Of a stretch of DNA of 7,967 nucleotides, positions 4,828 to 5,694 are shown piece by piece. The DNA lies in the IMG/VR virus record IMGVR_UViG_2695420699_000019. One strand, written 5' to 3'. The notes under the pieces were generated by a model. It ran no database searches. It had not been told where the DNA came from and saw only the letters and a list, made by a program, of their open reading frames with translations. The number at the start of each line of letters is the position of its first letter. Within the stretch, counting starts at the first letter, position 1. Position numbers and translations under genes: made by a program. This DNA comes from a virus. Lineage: Duplodnaviria > Heunggongvirae > Uroviricota > Caudoviricetes.

Positions 4828-5256
4828 ATGAACGAATATGTTTATAGTGCCAGGCATAATGCTTTTTTCCCTGTGGATATGATTGATAAATATAAATCAG
4901 TAGGATGGGATTTATCAGATGCTAAGGAGGTGAATCAAAATATTGTCAGTGAGTTTATGGCTGAACCGCCACAAGGAAAAGTCCGTATTGCCGGAGAGGA
5001 TGGACTACCTGCGTGGGCAGATATTCCTCCACCTACTCATGAAGAGCTTATTGAAATTACTGAATCAGAAAGACAGCTACTAATTAACCAGGCTAACGAA
5101 TACATGAACGGTAAGCAATGGCCTGGTAAAGCCGCTATTGGTCGTCTGAAAGGTGAGGAACTGGCGCAATATAATTTGTGGCTGGATTATCTGGACGCAC
5201 TGGAGCTGATCGATACTTCCGGTGCGTGTAGTGGCACACTAAATTTGGCCACCTGA
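4828..5256 (+). CDS. Tail-fibre assembly protein (Tfa/Mu-U-like), cassette B partner; C-terminus replaced by IS-derived sequence
   Basis: ATG at 4828 with RBS AGGGTG about 7 nt upstream (the ORF track's GTG at 4819 is probably not the start). Shares the motif [31 protein letters not shown] with the tfa at 6441-6884, but ends ...[15 protein letters not shown] instead of the usual ...SxAPDIEWPxP tail, diverging exactly where the IS-like sequence begins (about 5227). Confidence 0.75.
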
Positions 5257-5571
5257 TGAAAGGTGATATTCTCACCACAACACAAAACAGGTGACTTAAT
5301 GAACAAGAAAACCAAACGAACCTTCACCCCTGAGTTCAGGCTGGAATGTGCACAGCTGATTGTTGATAAGGGCTACTCATATCGACAGGCCAGTGAAGCG
5401 ATGAATGTCGGTTCAACCACGCTTGAGAGCTGGGTACGCCAGCTCAGGCGAGAGCGCCAGGGTATTACGCCCTCTGCCACACCCATTACTCCAGACCAGC
5501 AACGTATCCGCGAGCTGGAAAAGCAAGTTCGCCGTCTGGAGGAACAAAATACGATATTAAAAAAGGCTACT
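5227..5571 (+). mobile_element. IS3-family (IS911-like) insertion-sequence remnant: left end plus orfA, truncated near the frameshift site
   Basis: Begins TGTAGTGGCACAC... (IS3-family ends typically start TG). Encodes an OrfA homolog and includes the A-AAA-AAG slippery heptamer (5559-5565), but no orfB follows in any frame. The right boundary is approximate. Confidence 0.7.
5299..5571 (+). pseudogene. IS3-family transposase OrfA (HTH/leucine-zipper part), orfB missing
   Basis: [91 protein letters not shown] is similar to IS911 OrfA as I recall it. RBS AGGTGA 5 nt before the ATG. The reading frame then continues into non-IS sequence up to the TAA at 5689-5691. Confidence 0.7.
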
Positions 5572-5694
5572 GTAGATTCAATAGATCCCTGTGATTCCGC
5601 ACTGCGTATCTGGGGCGACACCGTTGTCGAGTGTGTGCTTAACAAACTCTGCCCTTCGCATACCTACGTAATTTTTAAATATCCGGAGTAATCC

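Follow-up and report, generated by a model that had tools for sequence, protein, structure and literature searches.

Among the closest described parallels to the locus analysed here are the Pin (e14), Gin (Mu), and Cin (phage P1) switches. In common with these systems, two of the assembled pieces described below (P1 and P3) carry a serine invertase (Resolvase and HTH_7 domains), an upstream ymfQ gene that resembles gp48 of Mu, and a pair of convergent Sv-tfa cassettes, with ix crossover sites where Sc meets Sv. The switch itself forms the background to the insertion discussed here. A switch with the same components occupies the ssrA island of Escherichia coli strains 602687 (CP189657; locus L002) and CD45 (CP182220; locus L003). 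In both strains, the canonical order is pinE (minus strand), ix, Sv-tfa (plus) facing tfa-Sv (minus), ix, Sc (minus), ymfQ (minus), a complete IS3-family element (plus), and a ypjA remnant. This island carries an invertase and a tail-fibre switch without other phage genes. The insertion sequence (IS) that concerns us lies outside the ssrA-island switch in every resolved genome, and in 602687 and CD45 a copy of the same IS is found beyond ymfQ, at the 5′ end of that gene.

The stretch of DNA that we analysed (hereafter the window) comprises the terminal 7,967 nt of CYEQ01000044.1, a 31,360-nt contig from a draft aEPEC E. coli assembly (GCA_001283285.1) that has been used among the published 'global aEPEC' genomes. 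Here, both switch components and IS sequence appear in an order that differs from the canonical island. An earlier note had described positions 5227-5694 as an IS3-family remnant lying at the seam between two half-switches. Our analysis indicates that this segment is very probably a composite created when a draft genome was scaffolded around a gap, and not a compact IS remnant.

Three assembled pieces in the window

The layout of the window was derived from an open reading frame (ORF) listing, Pfam scans, and BLAST comparisons with complete E. coli genomes. When compared with the deposited CYEQ01000044.1 record, the window differs at positions 4041 and 5583 only, where the record carries N and the window carries A. 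These are the sole Ns within the 14 kb of the contig that was retrieved, and both coincide with breakpoints in homology (the left one mapped to 4041-4046). Specifically, the N at 4041 marks the junction between an SvB stub and an internal position of pinE, and the N at 5583 marks the junction between an IS30 tip and an internal position of ymfQ. The sequences that flank these positions map to separate loci in complete genomes, namely the ssrA island (L002) and prophage e14 (L004, likewise from strain 602687). Since the Ns fall exactly on the odd junctions, the window consists of three assembled pieces, P1 (1-4040), P2 (4042-5582), and P3 (5584-7967), joined across gaps at 4041 and 5583. Furthermore, the N that the record has at 5583 means that the sequence is not continuous across the supposed seam, and this scaffold gap may stand for missing sequence of any amount or for a false join.

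Piece P1 represents the ssrA island from smpB to a pinE-ix-SvB stub. It opens with smpB (1-483) and ssrA, continues with three hypothetical genes for proteins of 343, 114, and 70 aa (1270-3000, between ssrA and pinE, the 70-aa gene on the minus strand), and then enters pinE, the serine invertase gene of the island (3193-3783, minus). The 343-aa protein has no Pfam match; its conservation extends to the ssrA islands of 602687 and CD45. Beyond the gap at 4041 that divides P1 from P2, the second piece opens with an e14-type pinE, of which it contains the 121 codons at the 5′ end (4042-4367, minus; Resolvase domain). An ix crossover site separates this gene from the tail-fibre C-terminal cassette SvC (4394-4807, plus; Gp53-like_C domain), which is followed by the tail-fibre assembly gene tfaC (4828-5256, plus; Caudo_TAP, 79.9 bits), by nucleotides 1-344 of an IS911-like IS3-family element (5227-5570, plus), and by the outermost 12 nt of a terminal inverted repeat of IS30 (5571-5582, plus).

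Piece P3 starts with the last 35 codons and the stop codon of ymfQ, a Mu gp48-like baseplate gene (5584-5691, plus), and proceeds through the tail-fibre gene (5695-6438, plus), which comprises the constant part Sc, an ix site, and the SvB cassette, into the distal cassette. From 5584 onward, there is 100% identity with L002 9160-8746 in reverse complement, of which 9160-9053 is the ymfQ portion, and the translation of 5584-5691 equals the C-terminal 35 residues of YmfQ from L002. Thus, positions 5572-5694, which the earlier note had left unassigned, can be assigned: 5571-5582 is the IS30 tip and 5584-5691 is the 3′ end of ymfQ, the only fragment of this gene in the window. The same note had correctly observed that an in-frame stop codon (5689-5691) precedes the tail-fibre ATG (5695) by only one codon. 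This stop is that of ymfQ itself, and the same spacing between the ymfQ stop and the tail-fibre start in 602687 and CD45 reveals it to be the normal arrangement of these two genes. The apparent single ORF at 5263-5691 (142 codons), which gives the look of an in-frame orfA-ymfQ fusion, is an artefact that arises because the one-base placeholder at 5583 keeps the frame.

The exact tail-fibre protein of P3 is present in many assemblies (230 index blocks). In all 26 contigs that were read, it is preceded by the Mu-like baseplate genes gp45-gp46-gp47 and a full-length, 194-aa gp48/YmfQ (PF10076), and the tail-fibre gene is followed on its 3′ side by tfa, a second tfa (minus), Sv (minus), and an invertase gene. 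The left end of P3 lies in mid-ymfQ, 108 nt before the stop codon. A search of other genomes for a mosaic or repeat boundary inside ymfQ that would explain this end found none, and nearly all matches span the whole query. A strain-specific element, perhaps IS30, may truly abut ymfQ at the point where P3 starts.

Other piece ends are located in repeats. The left end of P2 falls inside a 364-nt exact repeat that is common to the island pinE (window 3303-3666) and the e14 pinE, and the pinE-ix copies of the two loci are 96-97% identical. Likewise, the last 232 nt of P1 (3809-4040) are identical to P3 5979-6211, such that the same SvB cassette has been assembled both onto the pinE-proximal ix and onto the Sc ix. 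The ix site belonging to the distal cassette forms the end of the contig, and P1 together with the reverse complement of P3 recreates the canonical layout seen in CD45. Because pinE-ix-SvB and Sc-ix-SvB were both assembled with an identical SvB, both orientations of the Pin segment were likely present, and these data are best explained by a culture that was mixed for the orientation of the ssrA-island segment and in which the switch would be active.

The gap at 4041 also creates apparent genes. A second, C-terminally truncated pinE (3933-4403, minus) and ORFs that fuse Sv to antisense pinE (3774-4091, plus) all span this N. With its annotated start, the truncated pinE has an exact record, which is on CYEQ01000044.1; no exact record was found for the version with an upstream start. 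All of these are products of the gap and do not represent a tandem duplication of pinE. Pin-mediated recombination at pseudo-sites, which had been considered for the 4041 junction, was dropped after the N was found.

The insertion sequence in tfaC and its apparent nested IS30

The IS3-family sequence begins exactly at 5227 (TGTAGTGG...). IS-free genomes match tfaC through 5226, and the similarity of tfaC 5116-5225 to the paralogous segment at 6729-6838 (87%) ends one base before the IS start. These results agree with the proposal of the earlier note that the IS starts where this tfa diverges from its paralog. As was also noted, the C terminus of the encoded protein is non-canonical: the 14 native C-terminal Tfa residues (PDIEWPTPPAIQAR) are exchanged for nine IS-encoded residues (CSGTLNLAT) and a stop codon.

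The resulting chimeric 142-aa Tfa protein has exact records on 84 contigs. Among the 24 contigs that were read, it resides in prophage e14 at icd in all nine distinct places and at ssrA in none, and the order in these places is bluR-ycgX-iraM-icd'-mcrA-pinE-SvC-tfaC|IS. An e14 locus adjoining mcrA/icd (L016) is 100% identical to P2 across 1,240 nt. Moreover, the SvC-tfaC|IS junction is identical at 951 of 951 nt in the complete genomes of strains 602687, CD45, and PS1Thumoskin9 (CP180607), and in all three the IS at this junction is a complete copy of 1,258 bp. A different neighbourhood is seen in another ENA draft (GCA_001284765.1, CXZN01000005.1; L010 5400-6700), where tfaC|IS is followed by the T6SS genes tssF, a gp25-like gene, and vipB rather than by the e14 tail terminator. 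This arrangement is either a real IS-mediated rearrangement or a further assembly join made through the IS repeat.

Strain 602687 carries two complete copies of the element (L002 9613-10870 and L004 9778-11035), and these permit its classification. The full L002 copy encodes a 103-aa OrfA, with orfB in the -1 frame across AAAAAAG, and on NF033516, the NCBIfam model for the IS3 family (cut-off 160), its OrfAB product reaches 360.6 bits. Its termini are imperfect inverted repeats with 5′-TG...CA-3′ ends (left TGTAGTGGCACAC..., right ...GACCACTACA), and the terminal repeats of the element read TGTAGTGG.../...CCACTACA. Given the IS3-family score of OrfAB and the 56% identity of OrfA to InsN of K-12 IS911A, the element is an IS911-like member of the IS3 family. 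RefSeq names its transposase simply 'IS3 family transposase' (WP_085968792.1), NCBIfam gives 'IS3 family', and cluster names give 'transposase'.

Only the left inverted repeat is present in the window, from 5227. The IS portion there (nucleotides 1-344) is 100% identical to L002 9613-9956, and the ORF at 5263-5691 matches PF01527 HTH_Tnp_1 with 47 bits (cut-off 24.1). The family assignment of the earlier note is therefore upheld, as is its A6G frameshift heptamer, which is present at 5559-5565. Its statement that the element retains orfA requires correction. The gene starts with an ATG at 5299 and breaks off after 91 of its 103 codons, where IS nucleotide 344 gives way to an IS30 end (5570/5571), and orfB is absent from the assembled sequence.

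The view that the IS is truncated or internally deleted fares no better. A contiguous deletion junction between IS-internal and non-IS sequence is not what the window holds at this point; the 100% match to the intact IS stops at 5570, IS30 begins at 5571, five nucleotides past the A6G heptamer, and the N follows at 5583. In addition, a complete element at the tfa|IS junction, which the earlier note had named as a refuting result, is found in the three complete genomes described above. The IS at 5227-5570 thus appears to be interrupted by a nested insertion and not deleted. The 12 nt at 5571-5582 (TGTAGATTCAAT), a sequence common to both IS30 ends, match the tip of the IS30 repeat at 12 of 12 positions, and they are located at the very IS nucleotide that carries a complete IS30, with a 2-bp duplication (AC), in plasmid CP024241 (L001), in E. 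coli DEC9B (CP074760; L017), and in K-12. The remainder of IS30 and the duplication would lie beyond the gap. A nested IS30 here parts orfA from orfB and would thereby inactivate that copy of the IS. An IS30-mediated deletion or inversion was rejected as the primary origin of the 12-nt stub, since IS ends stay whole at transposition junctions and the stub runs directly into a gap.

Whole IS30 copies at the same nucleotide of the same IS occur in plasmid CP024241 and about 101 complete genomes, at various chromosomal and plasmid sites. When a chimeric tfaC|IS::IS30 query was searched, no complete genome included the tfaC flank. Since no complete genome combines tfaC|IS with the nested IS30, the 12 nt could derive from another IS::IS30 copy in the strain rather than from the e14 copy.

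The target site is shared more widely. The arrangement ATATTAAAAAAGGCTAC|IS30|AC is identical in two IS911-group elements whose OrfA proteins are 56% identical (window 5554-5582; K-12, L006 2025-2053; L001 3328-3356; L017). This coincidence suggests a sequence-specific IS30 hot spot within the programmed-frameshift window, the use of which would inactivate the host IS. The evidence for repeated IS30 targeting of one 17-nt stretch within the frameshift window of the IS911 group is a mildly useful by-product of this work.

Target-site duplications provide some further history of the element. For the IS3 family, duplications of 3-4 bp are expected. In E. coli DEC9B, a 2,481-bp IS::IS30 composite (L017 7004-9484) is inserted in a lambdoid gpU gene and is bordered by its own 3-bp duplication, GCC; therefore, the inactivated composite has transposed as a unit, presumably with transposase supplied in trans. 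The two copies in strain 602687 have no duplication. In the ssrA island, one of them (L002 9613-10870) cuts into ymfQ at its 5′ end; in e14, the other (L004 9778-11035) connects tfaC with a truncated tail-terminator gene. This pattern points to IS-associated deletions or recombination between copies in that lineage. The right end of the copy in the window lies beyond the assembled sequence.

Scaffolding and rearrangement as possible sources of the joins

How could pieces from two loci come to stand in a single contig? The explanation that we strongly favour involves both a real insertion and an assembly error. An IS911-like element interrupts tfaC at its 3′ end, and this gene is part of the pin-proximal cassette in the invertible tail-fibre switch of e14. 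P2 probably belongs in prophage e14 at icd, as it does in other assemblies, and P1 and P3 are probably opposite sides of the switch that Pin inverts in the ssrA island, P3 being drawn flipped since both orientations were probably present in the culture. Short-read assembly of the aEPEC isolate would have been tangled by repeats, and three contigs would then have been chained with N gaps. The scaffolder presumably threaded P2 between P1 and P3 by way of shared repeats (the two pinE copies, the ix sites, and copies of the IS and IS30), leaving assembled sequence that halts 12 nt into IS30, an N gap, and then the normal ymfQ-stf-tfa module. One Illumina pipeline in wide use at that period links contigs through read pairs and leaves N gaps, and its authors describe the SSPACE and GapFiller steps as greedy, with false joins possible (PMC5320598). 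From the ENA-type accession and the 'global aEPEC' use of the genome, we infer that this pipeline made the assembly.

Searches for the joins as drawn are consistent with a scaffolding origin. None of 5,426 complete E. coli genomes covers the 5227-5694 arrangement, and the exact string across 5583 has zero matches in genome contigs and zero in metagenome contigs. Exact look-ups among 153 billion gene records likewise returned no orfA'-'ymfQ fusion protein with either start codon. For the 4041 junction, complete genomes yield only permuted matches in two pieces and no contiguous junction.

The alternative that survives best, although we consider it unlikely, is that the scaffold order is right and that the gap hides a roughly full IS30. 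Nested in the IS911-like element of this strain, it would connect the e14 half-switch with a ymfQ gene interrupted 108 nt ahead of the stop codon, and a real IS30-mediated rearrangement would have placed tfaC|IS'-IS30-'ymfQ-stf beside the ssrA island. Indeed, P2 ends in an IS30 tip, P3 opens abruptly in ymfQ at a point with no repeat boundary in other genomes, and the scaffolder did detect some linkage among the pieces. Furthermore, IS30 is known to produce deletions and inversions via joined-end intermediates (PMC9333248). However, a chimeric query made of the IS30 right end and 'ymfQ found no complete genome that covers the junction, complete genomes with tfaC|IS::IS30 are equally lacking, and P2 resides at e14/icd in all other assemblies examined. 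This explanation also requires a second, unrelated junction at 4041, which sits in exact repeats. Finally, inserts of the usual 300-500 bp would not span an IS30 of 1.2 kb, nor would one N be expected to stand for such an element.

A related proposal concerns the product of such an event, a hybrid locus in which an IS30 nested in an IS911-like element has fused the pin-proximal half-switch of e14 to the ymfQ-tail-fibre module beside ssrA. If true, this locus would possess two invertase genes and extra Sv cassettes, with IS sequence preceding the tail-fibre gene. We judge the existence of this hybrid locus in this aEPEC strain to be improbable.

It is very unlikely that the window is literally continuous, with the Ns as ambiguous bases and with illegitimate recombination having fused an IS cut at nucleotide 344, plus a 12-nt IS30 stub, to the 3′-terminal 108 nt of ymfQ. 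A single base at 5583 does leave ORF 5263-5691 open in the ymfQ frame, ending 3 nt before the tail-fibre start where it may drive or couple expression. However, the two Ns coincide precisely with the two junctions that are novel, as fits joins rather than random ambiguous bases, the piece ends lie in repeats, and both the junction and the fusion protein are absent from the collections searched. A weak promoter in the left end of IS911 could in principle read outward to downstream genes. A promoter and terminator scan of 5100-5800 nevertheless found nothing inside the IS fragment, and the sole promoter-like site (5146-5175) is inside tfaC and does not rise above shuffled sequences, with 0.6 such sites expected by chance.

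With scaffolding as the preferred source of the joins, two further suggestions of the earlier note lose their footing. It had viewed the IS remnant as the scar of the rearrangement that joined the invertase-proximal module to the tail-fibre module. The join at 5583 was made by the assembler or scaffolder, and P2 is found at e14 icd/mcrA in all other assemblies examined. It had also suggested that the IS could influence transcription into the tail-fibre gene. This effect presupposes adjacency across 5583, where the join is one of scaffolding, and elsewhere the tail-fibre protein is always encoded after a full-length gp48/YmfQ. The window therefore says nothing about such transcription or about truncation of the IS.

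The case is of value chiefly as a caution. When a scaffold join of a single N is displayed as a normal base, it can pass for a recombination scar, a truncated mobile element, or an in-frame fusion ORF. This danger is greatest close to IS copies and invertible phage switches, regions in which assemblies from short reads become tangled.

Comparison with described insertions and prophages

The real parts of the segment are already known. They include an IS3-family insertion in a prophage tfa gene, which is annotated in complete genomes in RefSeq, a nested IS30 like that in K-12, and a normal boundary between ymfQ and the tail-fibre gene. The biology they represent is routine: an IS clips a gene for a tail-fibre chaperone in a cryptic prophage, and among relatives this insertion goes together with loss of the distal half of the e14 switch.

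These relatives are the e14 prophages of strains 602687, CD45, and PS1Thumoskin9, which share with the window the layout mcrA-pinE-SvC-tfaC|IS and an identical junction. Unlike the window, they carry the complete IS followed by a truncated tail-terminator gene, they are without a nested IS30, and they are not near ssrA. All three have also lost, by deletion, the baseplate genes, ymfQ, and the tail fibre, along with the distal half of their invertible segment.

The nested insertion has its counterpart in the IS911A::IS30A arrangement of E. coli K-12 (prophage CP4-6; insN, insI1, and insO). The host element in the window is not K-12 IS911A, as is evident from the divergence of its OrfA from InsN and from DNA similarity that is confined to the left end and the target site. 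In addition, just 12 nt of IS30 precede the gap in the window. Nevertheless, IS30 occupies the identical site in both, ATATTAAAAAAGGCTAC|TGTAGATTCAAT, located five nucleotides past the A6G heptamer. In K-12 the insertion is accompanied by the 2-bp duplication AC, and there, as apparently in the window, orfA is severed from orfB.
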